From a virus, in UHGV virus genome UHGV-0245202: 25,199 nt of DNA; one strand, written 5' to 3'. This document shows positions 241 to 13,995 of the stretch, piece by piece (the first letter of the stretch is position 1; the number at the start of each line of letters is the position of its first letter). The notes beneath the pieces are model-generated. The model searched no databases. It was not told the DNA's origin and saw only the letters and a list, made by a program, of their open reading frames with translations. The translations under genes were made by a program, and so were the position numbers.

Positions 241-996
241 TTATTCAGAATCAATATCTTTTAAATCATCCTGAATCGCTTGTGCGTTCGGATTTTCCTG
301 CTGTTTGAGTTCGCCGCCATTAGCGATGAAATCATGACGCTGGAAGTACGCTTCGCGCACCATAATATAAGGATCGGACGACTGACGCAGCAGACCATCG
401 GAATCCAGCAGCTGAGCGCGGGTTTCGATCCCTTCAAGCGTCCATTTACCCACAGACATCGGCCAGGTCAGCCAGGAAAGAACCGGGTAAAGACCATCCG
501 CCATATCACCACCATCATCACGCAGCGTGAAGCTACCGTAGAACGGTAACTGAACGTAAGGCCCATAACCCACGCCATAATGACCAAGCGTACTACCGAA
601 GCGGTGAGGTTCAGTCCGTTGCAGTTTCGGGTTCGCCATCCCTGCAACATCAATAAAGCCGCCCATCCCCAAAATGGTGTTCAGGAAAAAGCGGGTAAAG
701 TGGACCATCCCCTGATAAGGGTCGCCCTGCAAGAAGTAGTTAACCATCACCGCAGGTTCTTCAAGGTTGCCAGTAAAGTTGCTCAAACCATTACGCGCCG
801 GTTGCGGAACATAATCACGCCAGGCGACAGCGACCGGTCGAACAATATACGGGTCTAATACGTTGAAGTTGAAGTTGTACATGGTGCGGTTGAACCCTTC
901 TAACGGGTCAGAACGCCCTTGCTGATCTGTACCGGAACTCGCACACCCCACCAGAAGCGTAGTTCCCAGAGCAAGCGCCGACAGGCGAAGCTTCAT
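241..996 (-). CDS. mlaA: Outer-membrane lipoprotein MlaA (VacJ), phospholipid transport
   Basis: 251-aa ORF; N-terminal lipoprotein signal MKLRLSALALGTTLLVGC with lipobox LVGC; sequence recognised as MlaA/VacJ; ATG at 994-996 checked on the reverse strand; chromosomal GC-rich codon usage. Confidence 0.9.
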   Translation of the reverse strand: MKLRLSALALGTTLLVGCASSGTDQQGRSDPLEGFNRTMYNFNFNVLDPYIVRPVAVAWRDYVPQPARNGLSNFTGNLEEPAVMVNYFLQGDPYQGMVHFTRFFLNTILGMGGFIDVAGMANPKLQRTEPHRFGSTLGHYGVGYGPYVQLPFYGSFTLRDDGGDMADGLYPVLSWLTWPMSVGKWTLEGIETRAQLLDSDGLLRQSSDPYIMVREAYFQRHDFIANGGELKQQENPNAQAIQDDLKDIDSE

Positions 997-2497: not shown

Positions 2498-2533
2498 GTG
2501 GATAAAATAATTTTACCCACCGGATTTTTACCC

Positions 2534-3691
2534 ATGCTCACCGTTAAGCAGATTGAAGCAGCAAAGCCGAAAGAAAAACCATACCGCCTACTCGATGGTA
2601 ATGGCCTGTACCTTTATGTCCCTGTGTCAGGGAAAAAGGTATGGCAGCTTCGCTACAAGATTGACGGTAAGGAGAAAATCCTGACCGTAGGAAAATATCC
2701 GCTAATGACTTTGCAGGAGGCAAGAGATAAAGCATGGACCGCGAGGAAAGACATCTCGGTTGGCATCGATCCGGTAAAAGCGAAAAAGGCTTCGTCTAAC
2801 AACAATTCCTTTAGTGCGATTTACAAGGAATGGTACGAGCACAAGAAGCAAGTCTGGTCAGTAGGCTATGCAACTGAACTTGCAAAAATGTTTGATGACG
2901 ACATTTTACCTATCATCGGCGGCCTTGAAATTCAGGATATTGAGCCGATGCAACTGCTGGAAGTAATCCGCAGATTTGAAGATCGCGGTGCAATGGAGCG
3001 AGCCAACAAAGCCCGCAGAAGATGCGGCGAGGTTTTCCGTTACGCTATTGTCACTGGTAGGGCTAAATATAACCCGGCACCTGACCTTGCTGACGCCATG
3101 AAGGGATACCGCAAGAAAAACTTCCCGTTTCTTCCTGCAGACCAGATCCCGGCATTTAACAAAGCACTGGCAACATTTTCAGGAAGCATCGTATCGCTCA
3201 TTGCGACCAAAGTTTTACGCTACACAGCCCTCAGAACAAAAGAGCTTCGTTCCATGCTATGGAAGAACGTCGATTTTGAAAACAGGATTATCACCATCGA
3301 CGCCAGTGTGATGAAGGGACGCAAAATTCATGTGGTTCCTATGTCAGACCAGGTAGTTGAACTTCTCGCTACGCTAAGCTCAATCACTAAACCAGTGTCA
3401 GAGTTTGTTTTTGCCGGGCGCAACGATAAGAAGAAGCCAATCTGCGAGAACGCGGTATTACTTGTGATCAAACAAATCGGCTATGAGGGTCTGGAAAGCG
3501 GTCACGGATTCAGGCATGAATTCAGCACGATTATGAACGAGAACGAATGGCCTGCTGATGCTATTGAAGTGCAACTGGCACATGCCAACGGCGGATCTGT
3601 GCGCGGGATTTACAACCACGCTCAGTATCTCGATAAGCGCAGAGAAATGATGCAGTGGTGGGCAGACTGGCTTGATGAAAAGGTGGAGTGA
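2534..3691 (+). CDS. intS: Tyrosine site-specific integrase, IntS (CPS-53/KpLE1) type
   Basis: 385-aa product from the first ATG (2534); the ORF track start at 2498 is a GTG-initiated extension. Sequence recognised as E. coli IntS (MLTVKQIEAAKPKEKPYRLLDGNGLYLYVP...), with C-terminal catalytic region HGFRHEF and a conserved Tyr near the C-terminus; adjacent to and co-oriented with argW. Confidence 0.9.
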   Translation: MLTVKQIEAAKPKEKPYRLLDGNGLYLYVPVSGKKVWQLRYKIDGKEKILTVGKYPLMTLQEARDKAWTARKDISVGIDPVKAKKASSNNNSFSAIYKEWYEHKKQVWSVGYATELAKMFDDDILPIIGGLEIQDIEPMQLLEVIRRFEDRGAMERANKARRRCGEVFRYAIVTGRAKYNPAPDLADAMKGYRKKNFPFLPADQIPAFNKALATFSGSIVSLIATKVLRYTALRTKELRSMLWKNVDFENRIITIDASVMKGRKIHVVPMSDQVVELLATLSSITKPVSEFVFAGRNDKKKPICENAVLLVIKQIGYEGLESGHGFRHEFSTIMNENEWPADAIEVQLAHANGGSVRGIYNHAQYLDKRREMMQWWADWLDEKVE

Positions 3692-3844: not shown

Positions 3845-4207
3845 ATGTTAAAGCTATTTGCAAAGTACACCTCGATTGGTGTGCTGAACACACTTATACA
3901 CTGGGTAGTTTTTGGTGTATGTATCTATGTCGCGCATACAAACCAAGCTCTTGCAAACTTCGCAGGTTTTGTTGTGGCTGTGAGTTTTAGCTTCTTCGCG
4001 AATGCAAAATTCACATTCAAAGCATCAACTACAACGATGCGCTACATGTTATATGTCGGGTTCATGGGAACACTGAGTGCTACTGTTGGATGGGCTGCTG
4101 ATAGATGTTCACTTCCTCCAATTGTCACTCTTGTTACATTCTCCGCCATCAGCCTGGTGTGCGGTTTCGTCTATTCAAAGTTCATTGTCTTTAGGGATGC
4201 GAAATGA
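3845..4207 (+). CDS. gtrA: GtrA, bactoprenol-linked glucose flippase
   Basis: 120-aa small four-TM protein; recognised as GtrA/YfdG; 4-nt ATGA overlap with the next gene (gtrB ATG 4204, gtrA stop 4205-4207). Confidence 0.9.
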
Positions 4208-5115
4208 AGATATCTCTTGTAGTTCCTGTCTTCAATGAAGAAGAAGCGATACCAATTTTTTATAAAACGGTACGTGAATTCGAAGAGTTGAAGCCATATG
4301 AAGTTGAAATTGTTTTTATAAATGATGGTAGCAAAGACGCTACGGAGTCAATAATTAACGCTTTGGCTGTTTCTGATCCGCTAGTTGTTCCGCTGTCATT
4401 TACACGCAACTTTGGTAAAGAACCAGCATTGTTTGCAGGGTTAGACCATGCAACCGGGGATGCGGTAATCCCAATTGATGTTGACCTGCAAGACCCGATT
4501 GAAGTGATTCCTCATCTTATTGAAAAGTGGCAGGCAGGTGCTGATATGGTGCTTGCTAAACGTTCGGATCGTTCAACCGATGGGAAATTAAAACGAAAAA
4601 CAGCTGAGTGGTTCTACAAACTTCACAATAAAATAAGTAATCCAAAGATCGAGGACAATGTTGGCGACTTTAGACTAATGTCCAGAAATGTTGTTGAGAA
4701 TATTAAACTTCTACCAGAACGAAATCTATTCATGAAAGGAGTTCTAAGCTGGGTTGGTGGAGAAATAAGTATTGTTGAGTATGCCAGAGCGGAACGCATT
4801 GCGGGGACGACTAAATTTAATGGCTGGAAATTATGGAACTTAGCTCTTGAGGGTATAACTGGTTTTTCAACATTTCCTCTACGAATGTGGACATATATAG
4901 GATTATTTGTTGCAACAATATCATTCATGTACGGAGCATGGATGATATTGGATAAAATTTTATTTGGAAACAACGTACCAGGTTATCCATCACTTCTTGT
5001 TTCTATTCTTTTTCTTGGTGGGATTCAATTGATTGGCATTGGAGTCCTAGGTGAATATATAGGAAGAATCTATATTGAAACCAAAAAAAGACCTAGATAC
5101 CTTATAAAAAAATAG
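4204..5115 (+). CDS. gtrB: GtrB, bactoprenol glucosyltransferase (GT2 family)
   Basis: 303-aa product with an N-terminal GT2 domain ([17 protein letters not shown]-x-D region) and two C-terminal TM helices; recognised as GtrB/YfdH. Confidence 0.9.
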
Positions 5116-5122
5116 GATGCAT

Positions 5123-6577
5123 ATGAACTTTTTAATTAGAGAAAGCGAAAAGAAAGCATTTGCTTTATTATTTGCAACCGCATTGCTTTTTATATATCCA
5201 TTAATGCATTATGGTATATATTTTCGAGACGATCTACACAGATCTGTAACTGGATACTATGGATGGAGCGGCCTTGGTAGACCACTCGCAGATATAGTTA
5301 TAAAAGTAGCATCAGCAAGCGGAGATAGACTATTAGATATTTTCCCGTATAACTTAATACTATCTTGCGCCATGCTATCACTAGCATGTATACATATAGC
5401 TAGATTATTACAACATCTAAACATAAAAAAGCCAACGTTTTGTGCCTCATTGTTTATCTTTAATCCATTTTTTCTACAAAATCTAGCTTATAGATTTGAC
5501 TCCACAGGAATGTCTTTAGCACTTCTTCTTTGTGCGCTTTCATACACCTACCAAAATAACAATATTTATATATCATTGGTAATTAAAATTTTACTTGGTG
5601 TCGCAACACTTTCACTGTATCAACCATGTGCAAATCTATTCATTGGGTTGCTATCAATCGAGCTCTCTGCATTATTCATTACTAACAACACAAACAACAA
5701 AAAATTATTTTTAACATTAATCAAAAAAGCTGGAGTATTTTTATCATTCTACTCTATTTACTTTCTAATCGTAGCAAGAATATGGGGTTCAGAAAACAAT
5801 AGATCTGAAATCGTCAAGTTAAATACAGATGGATTAAATCATATTTATAATACATTCCAAAGACTCAATACCTTGCTTGAGTCATTTTTTAATGGTCCAG
5901 TTATTTTTTATTTTATACCACCGGTTATTTTATTATTTATTTTTATTATCCTTACCGTTTACAAAAATAGAAACAACTCGTTGGCAACCAAGATGCTTTT
6001 ATTATTGCTATCATTGAGCTCGGCATATATATCTCTTCTTGGGCCGACATTTATTCTTGTTGATGCGCCCGTATTTCCAAGAACGCTGGTAAGCTTCTCA
6101 ATCCTCTTTGTTTTATTTTCCATGTATATAATTTCACTTTGTGATAAGCTAAAATGCATTGCATTAATACCTGTAGTAACAGTAATAGCATTTAGCTCTC
6201 AATTTGCCAACGCACTGAACACCCAAAGAGAACATGAGAACTTTGTTTTAAATATGGTTGCATATGATTTAATGAATATAAATGGAATACAAAAAATTAA
6301 GACAGTGGGCAAGATAAGATTCAGTAAAAGAGCTGAATTACTCACAAATGATAAGCCTCTAATAAGCCAATCTATAAGCAGGGCTACTGAATTTCTTGCA
6401 ACTTATCAAATGGTTAACAAGGGCTTGAAAGGTGTAAGCGATGGTTATGGCATAGAAAAATCCAATAAGGAAGAGTTGGACTCATTCAAAAGCAATGGTG
6501 TTAAACCATATGTTGATAACAATGAATACTCAATATATGAAAATAATGGCGTTGCAATTGTAGTTTTTAAGGGATAA
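5123..6577 (+). CDS. Serotype-specific O-antigen glucosyltransferase (GtrC-type, third gene of the gtr operon)
   Basis: About 484 aa from the ATG at 5123 (AGGA 5 nt upstream; the alternative in-frame ATG at 5117 overlaps that RBS). Very hydrophobic polytopic N-terminal two-thirds with a soluble C-terminal domain; strongly AT-rich, unlike the flanking DNA; positioned directly after gtrA and gtrB. Specificity cannot be inferred from sequence. Confidence 0.75.
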   Translation: MNFLIRESEKKAFALLFATALLFIYPLMHYGIYFRDDLHRSVTGYYGWSGLGRPLADIVIKVASASGDRLLDIFPYNLILSCAMLSLACIHIARLLQHLNIKKPTFCASLFIFNPFFLQNLAYRFDSTGMSLALLLCALSYTYQNNNIYISLVIKILLGVATLSLYQPCANLFIGLLSIELSALFITNNTNNKKLFLTLIKKAGVFLSFYSIYFLIVARIWGSENNRSEIVKLNTDGLNHIYNTFQRLNTLLESFFNGPVIFYFIPPVILLFIFIILTVYKNRNNSLATKMLLLLLSLSSAYISLLGPTFILVDAPVFPRTLVSFSILFVLFSMYIISLCDKLKCIALIPVVTVIAFSSQFANALNTQREHENFVLNMVAYDLMNINGIQKIKTVGKIRFSKRAELLTNDKPLISQSISRATEFLATYQMVNKGLKGVSDGYGIEKSNKEELDSFKSNGVKPYVDNNEYSIYENNGVAIVVFKG

Positions 6578-6664: not shown

Positions 6665-8638
6665 TCACCTCCATTTAAACCGAGGTGAATATTCACCGTT
6701 ATTGAATCTTCCTATACTTACCTGTATTGTCGCCGGAGAATCAGAAAGAACCTCGGTGCTATGCAATGATAGTATAAGTGATGATGATTCTATATCTCTA
6801 TCTATTTCGATCACATAACCATAATCTCGTTCTGGCTCTGTAAAATAAGCTATTGGGTTTCCGTTTGCTGCAATGGTAAATCTTCCACCAACAAATTTAC
6901 CCTTGAACATAACATGTATTTTTATCCGACTAACTCCCTTCGGTAAAACACAACCAGCATTTAATGATGCTGTAGAGTTTATATTGAAATCTTTCCTTAT
7001 CACTGTGTATGGAATTGCATATAAAGCTTCAGCAAAGCTTGATTGAGACTGATACTCTGTCGCAGCAATAGAGCTCCCCCCCATAATTCTAAATCCTCCA
7101 ACACCGGAGAACACACTATTAAAAGCATCCACAGCTTTCGTAAAGTTACCAATACAAACGGGTGTTTCTGCATCATTAATGAATTGTTCCCTTGAATACA
7201 ATGTCACACTGTTTATATATGTACTTTTATAACCACCAATATCATCAGGGCTTAAAAATCCATACCCATTGGAACCATCAGATACGCCATTAAATTCTGT
7301 ATAATAGCTACAAAATTCGTTAGATGATCTTGGAGATGTCTCAATCCATCCAAATCCAAAATTTCTCTCTGACTGAATATTGCTATAAGTACACCCACTA
7401 CTCCGCGTTATAAGGCCTGCGCCACTATAGCGCGTCGCTGAGTCTGGTGATGGGTCAAAATCACCATTGCGACCATTTGTGTGTGTACGTATACGTAAAA
7501 AACTAACAGAATTTACAGCCAAATCATCAGTTTCTCCTTGAGTAGGATAACCAATAACAACTCCGCGCCCATAGTTATCATGTGCAACTATTGTTCCAAA
7601 TGAACAGAACCAAGACTGATAAACTGATATGCCGACGACACGAGCATTTATGGCTGTAATATTGTCGCAATGTGACTCATTTGTAAAATATCTAAAATAA
7701 AATCCATTTGTCGCCTTATTATCACAATCAGAAATTATATTTGTAATTCTTACTGAGCTTACATCTTCAGTTGGTGTAACTCCAATTGGAGAGCGAGAGC
7801 ATCTAATAACAGCCTTTTTAATTGCAACATCCCCAATCCATTTAATGGTTGTAGCAAATCTATTACCTGCTCGCAGAGAATTTCCATATCCTCTCATATC
7901 CAAGCCATTTGGAGGCACAAACTCATCTGTAATTCCAATAACACCAGCTGGAAGGATTAAAGGTAGTTTATTATCAGATGCGAATTTAGCAGCACTGGTT
8001 AACTCATTAATTGAATCTTTTTCTCCATTTAAATTAACCCCCCACCATTTTAATAGAACTTCTCCATTGATATTTCGTTTCCACCGCCTCCCAATTGCGT
8101 CAATAAGTATTGTTCCTCCATTATCTTGAGATGTAGAATCATACTTATCAATTTCAAATATTCCATTTCCACCATCAAATATATTTCGCACACCATATAC
8201 ATAGCATCTATGCATATTCCCGCTATAATTTCTAATATCTTCGTAATTTGCTCCACCTATATATCCCAAACCGAAGCTTTGAGATAATTGAACTTTAAAT
8301 TGATCAGGTTCATACTTCAGCACATTCGGAAAATAAAACTGCTGAGCACCGTATGCATCATAAACAGCCATAGAATGGCCTTGCACAGTTACGAACTTGG
8401 CAATCTGTCCGTTATATACCGGGTAACCAGCAGCGTTAATGATGATTGGTTGCGAAACAGGAACGTGAGAGCCGTCTTCGTTCTCCACATAAACCTGAAT
8501 CTGGTTTTCAGGATTTACAGGGTCAGTGTCAATTTTACCGATATAAATTTTGCCATTGGCTACAGCTTTAAAAGAACGAGCCATAGTGAAGAGTTGAGAA
8601 GGCATGCTTACCACAACATTTGCGGTGATATCTGACAT
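6665..8638 (-). CDS. Tailspike protein (gp9 position); P22-type N-terminal head-binding domain with a divergent receptor-binding domain
   Basis: 657 aa from the ATG at 8636-8638 (GGAG 9 nt upstream); the ORF track start at 8686 adds 16 codons with no RBS. The first ~110 aa ([11 protein letters not shown]...[21 protein letters not shown]...[13 protein letters not shown]...[10 protein letters not shown]) match the P22 gp9 head-binding domain from memory; the remainder does not resemble the P22 endorhamnosidase domain and is AT-rich. Confidence 0.85.
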
Positions 8639-8663
8639 TTCATTGCTCCAGACGAATGATATG

Positions 8664-8686
8664 ATGCAATCACGATGTGATTGCAT
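8664..8686. promoter_or_regulatory. Perfect 23-bp palindrome, candidate operator (Mnt-type) between mnt and the tailspike
   Basis: ATGCAATCAC-GAT-GTGATTGCAT: 10-bp arms that are exact reverse complements around a 3-bp centre, in the 121-bp divergent gap between the tailspike ATG (8638) and the mnt ATG (8760). Confidence 0.4.
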
Positions 8687-8759
8687 ACCGAAATGGTACT
8701 ATTGAGTATTTATCCAGTAGGTTACGATGCCATTCCACCCAACTGGTGAGGCATCACGG

Positions 8760-9020
8760 ATGTACAGCAAATACGACGAGGCGCAGTTTCACTTGAGACT
8801 TCCGCATGAACTCCACGCGAAAATTAAGCAGCGTGCGAAGATGAATAACAGGTCGCTGAACTCAGAGATAATTGCAGCGATTGAAGAATCATTGGATAAA
8901 CAAAGCTCTGCATCAGTTTACATTGACGATGCAGAGCGTATGGCAGAACAACAATCGGATATGGTTAAGAAAATTGTCTTTGATACGCTCAAGAAGCTAT
9001 ATAAAAAAGACAGTAGCTAA
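8760..9020 (+). CDS. mnt: Mnt-like ribbon-helix-helix repressor (immI-type)
   Basis: 86 aa from the ATG at 8760 (GGTGAGG upstream); the ORF track start at 8727 adds 11 codons. N-terminal RHH beta-strand motif (FHLRLPHELHAKIKQRA...GRSLNSEII) and a C-terminal tail DAERMAEQQSDMVKKIVFDTLKKLYKK matching the P22 Mnt tetramerisation helix from memory; located at the P22 immI position and transcribed opposite to the late genes, as P22 mnt is. Confidence 0.8.
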   Translation: MYSKYDEAQFHLRLPHELHAKIKQRAKMNNRSLNSEIIAAIEESLDKQSSASVYIDDAERMAEQQSDMVKKIVFDTLKKLYKKDSS

Positions 9021-9040: not shown

Positions 9041-9118
9041 ATGCAAAGAGATATGCTGAATATTGCGTTCTACATATTTGGTTTTTGCACGTTCCTGGTG
9101 TTTGCGAAGCTATTCTGA
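9041..9118 (+). CDS. Putative 25-aa hydrophobic small protein (MQRDMLNIAFYIFGFCTFLVFAKLF); unannotated small ORF
   Basis: ATG at 9041 preceded by GGAGG (9032-9036, 4-nt spacer); 25 codons ending TGA at 9116-9118; a short polar N-terminus followed by a ~20-residue hydrophobic stretch. Lies 21 bp after the mnt stop on the same strand, and its 3' end overlaps the convergent gp16 stop codon (9110-9112). Below the 60-aa cut-off of the ORF track. Could be chance. Confidence 0.25.
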   Translation: MQRDMLNIAFYIFGFCTFLVFAKLF

Positions 9119-11503
9119 CAACGCATCAGACTTGGCACCCTGAGTAAGGGCGTTAATGGCCTTTTGCGCCTGCTGCATGGCTTTCTCAAACGCTGTTGAT
9201 CCGCGTGGGGTGTTTGCCATTCGGAGCATTGCATTTCTGAATGGCTCGCTCTCATAGGCGCGCGTAAGAAGTCCGTAGCTTACCGCTGCGCCAGTTGTCG
9301 CAGGGTTCATTGCTGTCCCATATCCGATAATGAACGGGATGGTTTGCTGCCCTGTTGGTGTTGTTACTGCCGCTTTTGCAGCCTGCTGCGTGGATTGCAG
9401 GTAGTTTTTCAATCCTTTCAGATAAGCGGCTTCCTGACCTTTAAATGTGATGCCAGTCTGGTTTTGCAGGATGTTAAGCTGTCGAAGGAACTGGTCAGGG
9501 GAACCACCTGATTTCTCCATCGCCTTTCCAATGATGCCATTGCGCATTTGCGCCCTGCCAACACGACCAACTGAGTTATACAGCGTCTTAATTTCCGATT
9601 TGTTCTTGCTGAATAGCATGTTGTTGACAACTTCCGGCGTCAGGTCGCCTTTCATGAGAACATTCTTCAGCCTGGTATTCTTTAGTTTCGCCGCTTCGTC
9701 AGCGTAGACGGCATTGGCCTGCTGATATTTACGGAGAGTATCGTTGCCAAGATTCTGACCAATGGCACCATTGATATCGTCGGTCATTGCCTTGTAAACG
9801 CGCTGAATGGCAGCATCGGAACGGTTTGGTAACACTGGTCGCTCCCCCTTCACGTCCATTCTGAACTGGCTGCGCAGATCGCTTAATTGCTTCAAATCCA
9901 GATTTACCGGACCATCAGGACCAGCATTGCGAACAAGCTCATCACGATAGGACTGAAGTTTTGAAATAGTCTCGTTATCAGCAACCTTACCAAGCTTCTG
10001 CAGGTTAGATATTTCTGTATCAATCTGCTGAATTGCTCTTGCAGGCTGAATGTTTATTCCCGCCATAGCATTCTGAACCTGCTCAAGACGGTTCCCTGCA
10101 GCACGACGAATTCCTGATGTTTTCGCTTTAAGGCTGTCAATAACAACAGCTGGATCATACTCACCGAATTTATCAGCAAATCTCTGCACCAACTGGCTTC
10201 TCGCTTCCTGTTGCGTTGCTCTCATTCCGCTTGTGCCAGCCAGGGGGATATTTTCCGCTGTCGTCTGCGCCATTTTTCCGACGCGGGAAATGGGTTGTAA
10301 CAGGTCTGTGGTGTGCAGAGGAACTCCTTCACGTTCTGCAAATCTGATAGCCTGTTGCGCTTCTGGTGCTATCGAACCACGAACACCACGATAAGCAGCG
10401 CCTAATCCACGTCCGGCAGCGTTAATAGCACCGCCAGCCAGCACACCAACGCCTAAATCGGTGGCGAGTGCTTCCGCATCATCTTTCGCACTGTTTGCAG
10501 CAAGTGATCCAACTGCGTTTTCTGCGAGAAGGCGAGTTGCCCCCTGAGCAATTCGACCAGCAAGTGTTGGTGCCTGTGCTGCCGCTCTCTCAACGCCAGC
10601 AGGAGTGAGGTAAGGCAATGCTTCAGCAAATACCCTTCCCTCTGTCGTTTGTGGAGTCAGCGCGCCTTGCTGAAGGCCAAAGTCCTGCTCTAATCCCTGC
10701 GTTGTTACTCGTGGTGCTGGTTGATATGTACCATCGCCAATGCCGAGTTTACCGCCAGCCCAAGCCGCCGCGCTTGTTACAGCATCAGTGAGTTCAGCAG
10801 GTATGTTCGCTACGTTGATTCCTGCCTGTAGTAAGCCTCGCCCGGTTTCAGCAAGTCCATTACCAAGGTCAGACATTATTCCGCCTTGCTGCTGAACAGG
10901 TTTCGGTGCGACAGAACTTACGGGTTGAGGTGGCTGCTGACTGGCTGCCTGCTGCTCAATCTGAGCAAATGGATTATTTGGGTCTGACTGCACGCCTGAT
11001 GCCGATACTTGTTCGGATGACTGTGCTTCCAGTTGTGCAAACGGGTTGTTAGGGTCTTGCTGAGGATGTACCTTTGCAGAGGTGGCGCGCTGTTCGACTG
11101 TTGAGTCTGTCACCGGGTCACCCGCCCATTGAGCAAAGCGATCATCAACGTAACCGCGGCCTTCAGGTCCTGGCGTATATTCACCACGCTTTGCCTTCAT
11201 AACGTTGCCGGGACCGTCGTGATAAGCCTGAAGAGCGTCACGCCAGTTACCAAACTGCTGGTACATCTTTGCCAGATAGCGCGCGCCAGCGTCAGCCTGA
11301 TATTCGGGGTTTTGCATTTGCTCATCGGTATAACCCATATCACGCCATGTCCCAGGCATGACCTGAGTCAATCCTACAGCCCCGGCGGAGCTTACTGCGG
11401 CAGGGTTGTAAGAAGACTCCTTGGCACCCAGTGCAGTCATCAACCCTTCTGGCACACCGTAACGTGCGCCAGCCTGCTCTAACAAATCACGGTAATTAGC
11501 CAT
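9110..11503 (-). CDS. Ejection (DNA-transfer) protein at the gp16 position, with an N-terminal lytic transglycosylase (SLT) domain
   Basis: 797 aa; last gene of the gp7-gp20-gp16 ejection block by position. The N-terminal ~130 aa carry family-1 lytic transglycosylase motifs (GAKESSYNPAAVSSAGAVGLTQVMPGTW ... ALQAYHDGPGNV); this is followed by a Q/P-rich linker with a duplicated DPNNPFAQ(L/I)E motif and a long Ala/Gly-rich C-terminal region. Start codon abuts the upstream stop (TAA at 11504-11506, ATG at 11501-11503). Confidence 0.85.
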   Translation of the reverse strand: MANYRDLLEQAGARYGVPEGLMTALGAKESSYNPAAVSSAGAVGLTQVMPGTWRDMGYTDEQMQNPEYQADAGARYLAKMYQQFGNWRDALQAYHDGPGNVMKAKRGEYTPGPEGRGYVDDRFAQWAGDPVTDSTVEQRATSAKVHPQQDPNNPFAQLEAQSSEQVSASGVQSDPNNPFAQIEQQAASQQPPQPVSSVAPKPVQQQGGIMSDLGNGLAETGRGLLQAGINVANIPAELTDAVTSAAAWAGGKLGIGDGTYQPAPRVTTQGLEQDFGLQQGALTPQTTEGRVFAEALPYLTPAGVERAAAQAPTLAGRIAQGATRLLAENAVGSLAANSAKDDAEALATDLGVGVLAGGAINAAGRGLGAAYRGVRGSIAPEAQQAIRFAEREGVPLHTTDLLQPISRVGKMAQTTAENIPLAGTSGMRATQQEARSQLVQRFADKFGEYDPAVVIDSLKAKTSGIRRAAGNRLEQVQNAMAGINIQPARAIQQIDTEISNLQKLGKVADNETISKLQSYRDELVRNAGPDGPVNLDLKQLSDLRSQFRMDVKGERPVLPNRSDAAIQRVYKAMTDDINGAIGQNLGNDTLRKYQQANAVYADEAAKLKNTRLKNVLMKGDLTPEVVNNMLFSKNKSEIKTLYNSVGRVGRAQMRNGIIGKAMEKSGGSPDQFLRQLNILQNQTGITFKGQEAAYLKGLKNYLQSTQQAAKAAVTTPTGQQTIPFIIGYGTAMNPATTGAAVSYGLLTRAYESEPFRNAMLRMANTPRGSTAFEKAMQQAQKAINALTQGAKSDALSE

Positions 11504-12835
11504 TTACTGCCCCAAAGATGGAAGATATCCGTAGCGATTAATGAAGTCGATTGACAGCTCGGGGTGTTGCTTCAGGTAATCTATAGAAGCCTGAGGCGCT
11601 TCCACTCGCTTGATACCGTTTTGCTGAACGTACTTACCAACCGCCTCATTACGCTTCTGGTTGAGCGTGTTCAGGATGACGCCAGCGTTGCGACGAAAGG
11701 ACTCCTCGCTCTGCGAGTTCTGCAGCGAACCAACAGCCTGGTCGAGCTTTTTGCCCTCGGCATCAGAAAGTGCGCCCATGCCTCGCATGGCCTGAACCGC
11801 TGTCAGGTATGCTTGGGATTTAAAGGTATCAAGTCGTGCCTGAGTGTCTGCAGCCTGTGAGCCTGGAACGTTGGGGATTACTCCACGTAAGCCTGTAATG
11901 CTCTTAAGTGAAGGAGAACTAACGATATCGTTCAGAGTGAACATGCTGGTTGTGAGGGTGTTGATGCCGTCTTTGTAGCCATCATTTAGCGCTTGCTGCT
12001 TCTGCTGCAACTGCTGATTGTTGGCTGCTATGCGGCTCTGTATTTCCTGGCGCTTCAGGTCGTTAGTTTCTGCTGATAGCATCCGGTCAAGGCGCTTATT
12101 TTCGTTGTTAATGCGGTTTGTTTCTGCGTCCAGATTAATGCGCTGCTGACCTAAATTCGCCTGGATATCTTGCCCGCGCATTGTGATTGCCTGATTCCGA
12201 GCGGCGGTTTGCGAATCCAGATCCTGACCGCGCATGGTAACCTGGCGACCCTGCATTTTATCCTGTAGGTCAAAGTATTTTTCGGGTCCGAGACTGTTCA
12301 TCCCCAGGTGATCGACAAATTCGCCGAACTGCCGCGGGTTCTGTTGGTACATCTGAGCGACGTCCTGAGGATTAACGCCAACACGAGCTAACTCACCGGC
12401 GTTGTTTTGCAGCCATGATTGCATTGCTTCTGGAGACGATGACGCAAGGCGTGCGCCAGCCGCTAAGGTGCCGATAGAATTACGCTGGTCTTCATCAATG
12501 AACCCCATGCCTTTACGGACGGATTCAATCTGGTCTGGATATTGAGTAGCCAACTGACGCAAAGCACCGCGATCACCAGACGCATAAGCATTAGCGTACG
12601 CCTGCTGAAATTCTTTCTGCCGCTGAGCCTGCTTTTCCTGCTGAAACACCCCTGCAATACCTGAAAGGCCTTGCAAAGCAGTCAGCCCAACATTGTTAGC
12701 GCCTGAACGCTCAATATCATTGTTCTGCCTGATAAGCTGAAGCGTATTGCCGATGTCATTTACGCTCGGAGCGTTTGAGTTGACGCCGCCGATACCAGCC
12801 AACAATCCGCCGTTTGTTCCTTGCCAAGTAGCCAT
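11504..12835 (-). CDS. Ejection (DNA-transfer) protein at the gp20 position
   Basis: 443 aa, between the gp7-like and gp16-like genes in P22 order; Gln/Asn-rich with coiled-coil-like central repeats typical of Podoviridae internal/ejection proteins. Assigned by synteny and composition; homology not verified. Confidence 0.7.
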   Translation of the reverse strand: MATWQGTNGGLLAGIGGVNSNAPSVNDIGNTLQLIRQNNDIERSGANNVGLTALQGLSGIAGVFQQEKQAQRQKEFQQAYANAYASGDRGALRQLATQYPDQIESVRKGMGFIDEDQRNSIGTLAAGARLASSSPEAMQSWLQNNAGELARVGVNPQDVAQMYQQNPRQFGEFVDHLGMNSLGPEKYFDLQDKMQGRQVTMRGQDLDSQTAARNQAITMRGQDIQANLGQQRINLDAETNRINNENKRLDRMLSAETNDLKRQEIQSRIAANNQQLQQKQQALNDGYKDGINTLTTSMFTLNDIVSSPSLKSITGLRGVIPNVPGSQAADTQARLDTFKSQAYLTAVQAMRGMGALSDAEGKKLDQAVGSLQNSQSEESFRRNAGVILNTLNQKRNEAVGKYVQQNGIKRVEAPQASIDYLKQHPELSIDFINRYGYLPSLGQ

Positions 12836-12844
12836 GATTACCCC

Positions 12845-13537
12845 TTAAAACAACGAGCCAAGCAATCCGATACCAGCACCAATGCCAGCGCCCCAAGGCG
12901 TTGATGTTCCCAAAAGGCTGGCAAGACCTGCACCGGCAATCGCACCGGACGTTCCGCCGCTAATTGCTGTCTGAAGACTTGATGGTTTGTTGGCATTAGC
13001 AGCGGCAAGAGCTGCGCTTTGCTGTGCAATGCTGCTCATGTTGTTGGCGTACGTCTGCCCGGCGTTTGCCTGACCTTGCAGAGCACCAAGCCCAACGTTT
13101 GCCAGATTGTTGTAATTGCTCATCTGGTTTGATAACCAAGACTGACCGAGAGTCGGCGCGATCGTAGCCAGTTGATTGCTTGTGGCTGTCGAACCAAGTC
13201 CTCCCGTAGCCTCCGCAGCAGCAAGACTCTGGTAACGAGCCTGACCTGCAAGGTCTTTATACTGCTGAGAGTTGTAATACTGATTAAGTGCCTGCCCCTG
13301 ACCTTCTAAACTGGAAAGGTTCTGAAGCTGGTTAACATACTGCTCCGCAAGAGGCGTGAACGGAGCAAGGTTTTTCATGATCGTCTGCCACTGCTGATTT
13401 TGCAGGTCTGCGGCATACTTCTGAGCTTCTGCTGCATATTTTGCGCTTTTATCAGAACTGCCACCTTTCCCGCCTTTTTCAGGGCAATAAGGTTCCTCAC
13501 CGCGCAGTTTTCTGCCCAGTTTAAATGCATATAACAT
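12845..13537 (-). CDS. Ejection (DNA-transfer) protein at the gp7 position
   Basis: 230 aa (P22 gp7 is about 229 aa); N-terminus MLYAFKLGRKLRGEEPYCPEKGGKGG and a Gly/Ala-rich hydrophobic C-terminus; position immediately after the gp14-like gene matches P22 order. Confidence 0.75.
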   Translation of the reverse strand: MLYAFKLGRKLRGEEPYCPEKGGKGGSSDKSAKYAAEAQKYAADLQNQQWQTIMKNLAPFTPLAEQYVNQLQNLSSLEGQGQALNQYYNSQQYKDLAGQARYQSLAAAEATGGLGSTATSNQLATIAPTLGQSWLSNQMSNYNNLANVGLGALQGQANAGQTYANNMSSIAQQSAALAAANANKPSSLQTAISGGTSGAIAGAGLASLLGTSTPWGAGIGAGIGLLGSLF

Positions 13538-13539
13538 GG

Positions 13540-13995
13540 CTATCTCCCGTGATTCAGGAAGTCGATTAGTTCTTCGCGTGTGGCGCTGTAAAACGTCACG
13601 TCATCCACGCCTTTGAAGTATTTCTTGATGGTTCCTACACGCTTAAGGCCAATCATTGCGCAGTACATCTGACCGTGGCGGAATTTTCGTGCAGCAAATG
13701 ATGTGACGCACTGAACGGTGGTGTTAGTCAGAATGTATCGCCAGAACGCCAGCCCGATTTCCTTGCTGAATCCACGAACCTCTGGCAGGTACATGGCGTG
13801 GCAATCGAATGTCAGCGGCTGAATCTCCTGATAGTAAACAATGCCGCCGAACTGCCCGTGCACGTTCACCTCAAAGTAACGGCAATCATGTTTATAGTCG
13901 TATCCATCACCGTTGTTGCTCCCGGCAATAATGTCAGGGTGATTTCCGACTGCTTCTATCAGGTCGATGTTTCGCGTTGGTTTGAATGTAATCAT
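13540..13995 (-). CDS. gp14-position protein (ejection/virion-assembly associated), function uncertain
   Basis: 151-aa ORF between the tail needle gene and the gp7-like gene, where P22 encodes gp14; one-nucleotide overlap with the upstream stop. Assignment is by synteny only; I do not recognise the sequence. Confidence 0.5.
   Translation of the reverse strand: MITFKPTRNIDLIEAVGNHPDIIAGSNNGDGYDYKHDCRYFEVNVHGQFGGIVYYQEIQPLTFDCHAMYLPEVRGFSKEIGLAFWRYILTNTTVQCVTSFAARKFRHGQMYCAMIGLKRVGTIKKYFKGVDDVTFYSATREELIDFLNHGR

Follow-up and report, generated by a model that had tools for sequence, protein, structure and literature searches.

An N-terminal lytic transglycosylase domain and a twin peptide matched to the gp20 tail in a P22-type gp16 ejection protein

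The window analysed here, the whole 25,199-nt stretch of the virus genome UHGV-0245202, contains a gene for a gp16-type ejection ('DNA transfer') protein at 9110..11503 on the minus strand. Its N-terminus carries a family-1 lytic transglycosylase (SLT) domain, which is followed by a short peptide present twice. The data as a whole are best explained, in our judgement with good probability, by a recombinant third ejection protein with a functional SLT domain, whose twin peptide docks on the tail of the neighbouring gp20. The fusion of SLT to gp16 is real, common and already annotated. A single lead is new: gp16 homologues carry a paired peptide near the N-terminus, and gp20 has a tail that matches it.

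The open reading frame (ORF) starts with ATG, is uninterrupted over 797 amino acids (aa) and ends with a stop codon at 9110-9112. An earlier annotation made from the letters alone (the sequence-only reading) had placed a 797-aa ejection protein at the gp16 position, leaving the strand unstated. This placement is borne out by the match to PHROG 770 'DNA transfer protein' (E=9.9e-239 over aa 108-797), by the gp14-gp7-gp20 genes upstream and by the tailspike gene downstream.

The SLT domain

Family-1 lytic transglycosylases cleave the MurNAc-GlcNAc bond non-hydrolytically and leave 1,6-anhydroMurNAc. The domain of this family occupies aa 1-128 (11120..11503, minus strand) and was identified with Pfam, AlphaFold2 (AF2) and Foldseek. 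Pfam-A places SLT (PF01464) on aa 7-110 with E=2.8e-25 and 88.6 bits against a gathering score of 21.3, and PHROG 21143 covers aa 1-207. The three motifs that the sequence-only reading had recognised are all in the translation, namely E29-S30 (AKESSYNP), G44-LTQVMP-50 and A93-YHDGPGN-100.

The codon of Glu29, the predicted catalytic acid of the E-S motif, lies at 11417..11419 on the minus strand. When the 797-aa protein was compared with the sequences of the PDB, matches were confined to the SLT part; E. coli Slt70 was the top match (E=4.4e-10), with Glu29 opposite the catalytic Glu478. Pairwise BLASTP with T7 gp16 gave 28% identity over 130 aa (E=2e-10) and set Glu29 opposite Glu37. In an alignment with 75 other SLT proteins, residues E29, S30, G44, Q47, Y76, Y94 and G97 are invariant. 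Motif II, GLxQ, is present as G44-L-T-Q47, and in motif III (A93-Y94-H-D-G97) the Tyr and Gly are the invariant residues. The SLT sequence of aa 1-125 is identical in 35 of 39 database variants, and the domain is 55-63% identical across phage genera.

An AF2 model built on the SLT alignment had a pLDDT above 90 for aa 1-~120 and a lysozyme-like all-alpha fold. Foldseek matched it with probability 1.0 to Slt70 (1QTE), Slt, MltC, MltE, MltF and MltD, and also to the T7 gp16 chains 7EYB_I and 7K5C_B. The best solved match is the catalytic domain of Slt70 (1QSA/1QTE; Foldseek E=3.9e-6, 33% identity), with which the ES, GLxQ and AYxxG motifs are shared. Slt70, a housekeeping exo-enzyme, is 618 aa long and includes large superhelical U and L domains, whereas the window protein has the catalytic core of ~125 aa only, fused to a phage channel protein. 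Judged by motifs and alignment the active site is intact, and the SLT-bearing gp16-type protein is probably functional.

A recombinant gene on an Sf6-type body

The remainder of the protein, aa 209-797 (9113..10879, minus strand), is a gp16 body of the Sf6 gp13 type, and PF26808 (Phage_P22_gp16) is recorded on proteins 98-99% identical to it. In the full-length AF2 model the SLT domain is followed by a low-confidence region (aa ~115-365) and a confident all-alpha domain (aa ~370-797). Foldseek of this model against the PDB gave no match at E<=0.001, so that the gp16 body is without a solved relative in the copy searched.

Megablast against phage genomes divided the gene in two. Nucleotides 1-618 (aa 1-206) are 99.5% identical to Sf101, Huey, Dewey and APC_JM3.2, and nt 676-2394 (from aa ~226) are 96% identical to Sf6 gene 13 and ~74% identical to P22-group genes. 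Phage IME10 matches the gene from end to end at 97% nt identity, and E. coli prophage genes at 98-99%. Protein alignments agree with this division. The N-terminal 206 aa, comprising SLT and twin peptide, are 99-100% identical in Sf101 gp13, IME10, Huey, Dewey, APC_JM3.2 and proteins of E. coli and Cronobacter; in Sf101, Huey and Dewey the module sits on a very different body, in a protein of 911 aa, and in Cronobacter it forms part of an 813-aa variant. Sf6 gp13 (665 aa) has the same body and an unrelated N-terminus of 76 residues. The gain of 132 aa over Sf6 gp13 corresponds to the exchange of these ~76 residues for a module of 208 residues. On these alignments the gene is a recombinant of an Sf6-gp13-type body with an N-terminal module found also in Sf101.

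The exchanged segment extends into gp20. The gp20 homologue, a periplasmic tube protein of 443 aa (11504..12835, minus strand; PF16928, E=7.9e-68; PHROG 2534, E=2.7e-194), directly abuts the gp16 start codon. Identity to Sf6 gp12 is 95% over its N-terminal 180 aa and 42% over the C-terminal part. Wherever the SLT/twin-peptide module was seen, in phages as in E. coli genomes, it was accompanied by one version of gp20 aa ~180-443. Megablast coverage in both thus delimits a mosaic cassette of gp20 aa ~180-443 and gp16 aa 1-206 (10886..12298, minus strand). The whole cassette is present in 64 of 769 E. coli genomes with P22-type gp20, and the other records sampled match gp20 nt 1-537 only; in one record the match covers exactly nt 571-1950 of the query.

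The architecture of relatives was taken from searches with the gp16 body, which returned 1,118 representative clusters at E<=1e-3. A protein search with aa 1-208 gave only truncated close relatives and then generic cellular SLT proteins, and was uninformative on architecture.

The twin peptide

Between enzyme and body lies a linker rich in Q, P, S and A and of low predicted order (aa 129-215; 10859..11119, minus strand; pLDDT 32-60). The twin peptide is located here. Copy 1, DPNNPFAQLEAQ, spans aa 150-161 (11021..11056, minus strand) and copy 2, DPNNPFAQIEQQ, spans aa 174-185 (10949..10984, minus strand), so that DPNNPFAQ(L/I)E is present at both aa 150 and aa 174. AF2 modelled only two short helices in the linker, at aa 154-165 and 180-186, one for each copy and both at low confidence. 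Ten of the 12 residues are identical between the copies, including an exact 8-mer, which is far beyond chance for a protein of 797 aa.

The sequence-only reading had reported a direct duplication visible at the DNA level, and had seen in it an internally duplicated linker that enlarged the protein. The repeat is real. It belongs to the peptide and is hardly visible in the DNA, since only 24 of 36 nt are identical and most differences are synonymous: seven of the 10 conserved codons differ at a synonymous third position. Both copies are kept in 38 of 39 database variants with rare single substitutions only, and copy 2 is deleted in one variant. These data indicate a peptide maintained by selection and not a fresh duplication of DNA. 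A recent duplication by slippage was considered and rejected on the 24/36 nt identity, the mainly synonymous changes and the existence of homologues with two copies otherwise arranged. The repeat is no recent padding of the linker; it is one case of a twin peptide that many gp16 homologues have.

Copy 1 (NPFAQL) is positionally homologous to NVFDQF, NPFAQF or NFFDQF behind the SLT domain of IME_EC2, Skarpretter, Kc259 and IME279. In these four phages two copies flank the SLT domain, the second standing at the extreme N-terminus (MANIFDQFDQ, MANPFAQFAD). The window protein begins with MAN-YRDLL, without this leader peptide, and instead has its second copy 24 residues after the first. Homologues of gp16 that have no SLT domain also carry two copies, for example MANPFDQFDE…NPFDQFDD and MANFFDQFDE…NFFDQFDE. 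Other gp16 lineages have different peptides that are likewise paired (NPWEKY, FDPDAYLA, LPEGFEVV, GRNLFA), the first copy usually at residue 2-3.

Representatives with such a doubled N-terminal peptide include P0251, P0260, P0264, P0266, P0269, P0270, P0272, P0274, P0275, P0285, P0292, P0297, P0312, P0313, P0340, P0353, P0356, P0360, P0369, P0372 and P0374. Paired 8-mers sharing at least seven of eight residues were found within aa 1-150 in 26 of 113 gp16 representatives. The same test gave 0/113 in the control region aa 301-450 and 4/113 as the maximum of 20 shuffles. By this comparison, paired peptides near the N-terminus are widespread among gp16 homologues, whether SLT is present or not, and the twin peptide is the form that they take in the window lineage.

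In two gp16 homologues, P0283 and P0314 (loci L014 and L019), an unrelated segment of ~100 residues (aa ~10-118) stands between the NFFDQF copies, at the site that SLT occupies in proteins of the Murrayvirus type. A Pfam scan of P0283 gave no match for this segment. Accessory domains in general may insert into the space between the peptides.

The gp20 tail co-varies with the gp16 peptide

The last residues of gp20, PQASIDYLKQHPELSIDFINRYGYLPSLGQ (aa 414-443; 11507..11596, minus strand), are the proposed partner of the twin peptide. The last ~30 residues are common to the gp20 of Skarpretter, IME279 and C130_2 and to IME_EC2 gp27, and a tail of the PQASIDYLKQHPELSIDFINRYGYLPSLGQ type is not shared by Sf6 gp12 or BTP1 gp12. 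The genes upstream of eight gp16 homologues with an N.FDQF twin peptide and no SLT domain all (8/8) encode a tail …QF.AKYGY[LR]P…. Co-variation of the tail with SLT was therefore rejected, since the gp16 homologues that lack SLT have the same tail; the tail co-varies with the gp16 peptide.

The tail was present in 14 of 14 phages and contigs whose gp16 has an N.F[AD]QF peptide, weakly in two of them, and the …QF.AKYGY[LR]P tail was absent from all six loci with other gp16 N-termini. Among the loci compared were L011-L015 and L019-L021 with tail and peptide, and L016-L018, L022, L001 and L004 without. Where gp16 has another twin peptide, the tail of the partner gp20 is unrelated, and a P22-type gp16 N-terminus is paired with a …VTFTVE tail that resembles …IQFTVE of BTP1. 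The pattern of matched gp20 tails and gp16 N-termini suggests a gp20-gp16 docking element. It fits this picture that P22 gp20 cannot do without its C-terminal 33 aa (PMC10461980).

A wider proposal can be made tentatively, and we regard it as possible and not as the likelier outcome. In such a docking code, a lineage-specific N-terminal peptide of gp16, usually in two copies, would bind a matching gp20 tail. The code would set the boundaries of the cassette and limit the mixing of gp20 and gp16 alleles, and the surroundings of the peptide would be a permissive site for accessory domains. N.F[AD]QF with …AKYGYLP, and a P22-type β-hairpin N-domain with …FTVE, may be examples of such pairs.

The annotation of IME_EC2 divides the gp20 homologue between two ORFs, gp28 and gp27 (L005:4577-5901), of 280 and 161 aa, the second with …KYGFLPEGL. 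The division may be genuine, or it may come from a frameshift or an error of sequencing.

Proposed mechanism and alternative explanations

According to PMC13622523, the P22 ejection proteins assemble as gp7*, then gp20, then gp16 into a trans-envelope channel; P22 gp16 is a virion component that enters the cell envelope ahead of the DNA (PMC8402733, PMC13622523). P22 gp16 has 609 aa and Sf6 gp13 has 665 aa, both without a hydrolase domain (PMC8954989), in agreement with the sequence-only reading, in which P22 gp16 has about 609 aa and is not known to have SLT. The two share gene position with the window protein, and differ from it in their single-module N-termini (MAKAWKDV…EQYFNEV and MKVTANGKTFTFPEGT…IDEYF) and their gp20 tails. 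In T7, the gp16 transglycosylase is needed with highly cross-linked peptidoglycan, and the gp16 segment after the enzyme tapes gp15 together (PMC8954989).

We propose that the 797-aa protein would be packaged in the phage head, by homology with P22 gp16, and expelled through the tail after gp7 and gp20. The transglycosylase would then refold in the periplasm and cut MurNAc-GlcNAc bonds locally, which would allow the gp20 tube and gp16 to cross the murein. The helical body would subsequently form the part of the channel proximal to the inner membrane. The enzyme is probably dispensable under easy conditions and would matter most with highly cross-linked peptidoglycan, as in T7 gp16. The twin peptide would most likely dock gp16 on the conserved C-terminal tail of gp20, parallel to the 'molecular tape' of T7 gp16 on gp15. 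The suggestion that the channel may bring its own murein hydrolase, as T7 gp16 does, was already made in the sequence-only reading and is reasonable.

T7 gp16 (internal virion protein D, PHROG 342) is also the last of three ejected internal proteins and has an N-terminal family-1 transglycosylase on the largest of them (PHROG 342, E=1.9e-23, E37 aligned with Glu29). It likewise has an extended non-globular segment after the enzyme, which in T7 binds the gp15 tube. However, the PHROG 342 match is limited to aa 3-189, BLASTP found nothing beyond aa 119, and the rest of the 1,318 aa of T7 gp16 is unrelated in sequence. T7 has a pre-assembled core stack whereas P22-like phages are without one, and the nearest fold by Foldseek is cellular Slt70, ahead of T7 gp16. 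Because the homology ends after the enzyme, the 797-aa protein is a functional analogue of T7 gp16 and not as a member of its family.

Several points weigh against this proposal. Muralytic activity, its timing, presence in the virion, ejection and docking on gp20 are what we infer, and the model of the linker is of low confidence. The enzyme is not essential to the P22-type mechanism in general, since P22 and Sf6 infect well without it. The motif AYNxG reads AYHDG here (N95H). Co-variation was assessed on few loci (20), and these are not phylogenetically independent. Finally, the coding segments for the gp20 tail and for the first gp16 peptide are neighbours, and this adjacency would suffice to explain their co-inheritance as plain linkage.

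The last of these points underlies the most serious alternative, which we consider less probable than the main explanation though by no means negligible. Twin peptide and gp20 tail would co-travel through adjacency of their DNA only, with no homologous allele available for recombination, and the repeat would serve something other than gp20 docking, such as incorporation into the procapsid through binding of portal or scaffold, or binding of a host periplasmic protein. The gp20 stop codon does adjoin the gp16 start codon, the two alleles of the cassette are too diverged for megablast, and the first peptide copy is mostly at the extreme N-terminus, at most ~60 bp from the gp20 tail. Yet tail and peptide are conserved in amino acids while their surroundings diverge beyond recognition, and in the window a 128-aa SLT domain separates the two and both are still kept. 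The partner gp20 at L015, of only 310 aa and with no PF16928 match on record, nevertheless keeps AKYGYRPEGF. The pairing of …FTVE with the P22-type N-domain is a second and independent one.

A second alternative concerns the enzyme and appears improbable. The SLT domain would be a non-catalytic anchor that binds peptidoglycan, or a decaying passenger, and would hold or place gp16 in the periplasm while leaving glycan strands uncut. It draws on the His in place of the usually conserved Asn and on the success of P22 and Sf6 without a hydrolase on gp16. The catalytic Glu-Ser, GLxQ, Tyr94 and Gly97 are however intact and invariant, and the strong conservation of the domain, both among the database variants and across genera, speaks against this reading. 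AYHDG is common to all the related phage SLT domains and is therefore a feature of the lineage, not a sign of decay.

If twin peptide and tail mark the gp20-gp16 joint, as the docking proposal holds, this would explain the mosaic boundaries in the most variable part of the P22-like virion module and which swaps of ejection proteins are viable. The Sf6-type gp16 body occurs both with the enzyme and without it, and these phages also offer a natural comparison for the contribution of a virion-borne murein hydrolase to P22-type infection.

Prevalence and annotation

The full-length 797-aa gene is present in IME10 and in 52 of 5,426 complete E. coli genomes, 97.7-99.2% identical among the matches listed, where its PGAP name is 'lytic transglycosylase domain-containing protein'. 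The 90% protein cluster of the 797-aa protein has 1,295 members, and the 813-aa variant of Cronobacter has an identical N-terminal module. These counts already refute the weakest alternative, a very improbable one in which the ORF is an artefact, whether a degraded prophage gene or a separate lysis-type transglycosylase gene joined to gp16 by a frameshift or in assembly: databases do hold chimeras of gp7, gp20, gp26 or NinG with gp16 from defective prophages, all singletons or near-singletons, but the 2,394-nt ORF is intact in all 52 genomes and in the isolated phage IME10, the same module is on two other intact bodies (Sf101, 911 aa; Cronobacter, 813 aa), and the whole virion gene set of the window is intact.

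With tblastn, the N-terminal module found SLT at the same gene position in IME_EC2, Skarpretter, IME279, C130_2 and Kc259, in all cases after gp7-like and gp20-like genes. The SLT-bearing genera found were Murrayvirus (IME_EC2), Skarprettervirus (Skarpretter), Sortsnevirus (IME279) and Hungariovirus (C130_2), together with the Kosakonia phage Kc259. In this Murrayvirus-type group (IME_EC2 gp26, 1,007 aa; Skarpretter gp17, 977 aa), the SLT domains are 55-63% identical to that of the window and have the AYHDGPGN variant, an N.F[AD]QF peptide directly after SLT and a gp20 tail …GY/FLPEG. The group differs in that SLT lies between the peptide copies, whereas the window protein has both copies after it. 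Its bodies exceed that of the window protein by ~200 aa and have diverged too far to be listed with the top body homologues.

An N-terminal SLT domain, of differing sequence types, was present in at least four of 114 full-length gp16-body representatives. A hidden Markov model made from the SLT alignment found 3/114, and Pfam added the divergent P0359 that it had missed; the true share is at least the ~3-4% counted. In contrast to the rarity implied by the sequence-only reading, the architecture recurs, is standard and is correctly annotated in E. coli, Cronobacter and phages, so that the fusion is not novel; the SLT match itself is significant. No experimental characterisation of an SLT-bearing gp16 was found in the searchable literature; Casjens & Thuman-Commike 2011 may already mention the architecture. 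By term count, 'transglycosylase' has 0 occurrences in a 2026 preprint on the in-situ P22 channel (PMC13622523). A 2022 review describes P22-like phages as without the SLT domain. The statement that P22-like phages lack a hydrolase domain is untrue for a sizeable minority, made up of ~8% of E. coli genomes with P22-type gp20 (64/769) and several isolated phages.

At NCBI, gp16 homologues of 639-669 aa (P0155, P0161, P0166 and others) are also named 'lytic transglycosylase domain-containing protein'. Pfam found no SLT in Sf6 gp13 (L001:3722-5719) or VSe13 gp13 (L003:2722-4719), both 665 aa. On homologues without SLT the name looks like propagation from the SLT-bearing forms and is untrustworthy.

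Some gp16 bodies have in-frame N-termini derived from gp7, NinG, gp20 or the gp26 needle (P0159, P0160, P0163, P0165, P0133 and P0197, mostly in singleton clusters). Forms of 782, 776, 767, 835 and 798 aa were considered as alternative N-terminal modules and rejected as deletion fusions of gp7, NinG, gp20 or gp26 to gp16. Because their clusters are singletons or near-singletons, they were set aside as degraded prophages; such fusions probably arose by deletion in decaying prophages or as chimeras of assembly.

Genomic context of the gene

The window is the left arm of a P22-like, O-antigen-modifying (serotype-converting) prophage integrated at argW, tRNA-Arg(CCU), as follows from the gene order and from the integrase/tRNA/host junction, which also fix the gene at the gp16 position. 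The host side consists of mlaA (241-996, minus strand) and a gene of the formate/nitrite-transporter family (1290-2222), followed by tRNA-Arg(CCU) at 2298-2372 and the integrase at 2498-3691. Genes of the gtrA/gtrB/GtrII glucosyltransferase type (gtrC-, gtrB- and gtrA-like) occupy 3845-6577.

On the minus strand the virion genes begin with the small terminase (gp3 homologue). A 499-aa ORF at the large-terminase position and ORFs of 721, 303 and 431 aa at the portal, scaffold and coat positions follow, these four being assigned by P22 gene order and size only, with no domain search. ORFs at the gp4 and gp10 positions (191 and 472 aa) and at the tail-needle position come next, then gp14 (13540-13995, minus strand), the gp7 homologue, gp20 and the gp16 gene. 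The gp7 homologue, the first ejection protein, has 230 aa (12845..13537, minus strand; PF25688 P22_gp7, E=1.8e-134). Downstream of the gp16 gene is the tailspike with its P22 head-binding domain (6665-8686, minus strand; PF09008), and between the two a Mnt/Arc-like repressor is encoded on the plus strand (8727-9020). The order gp14-gp7-gp20-gp16 upstream of the tailspike is identical in Sf6, Sf101, VSe13 and BTP1.

An accessory domain was also seen at the other end of a gp16 homologue. P0364, of 1,043 aa, has a C-terminal PF18823 'InPase' domain at aa 858-990 (E=5e-56). The C-terminus of gp16 is thought to reach the cytoplasm, and this domain could be an injected effector.

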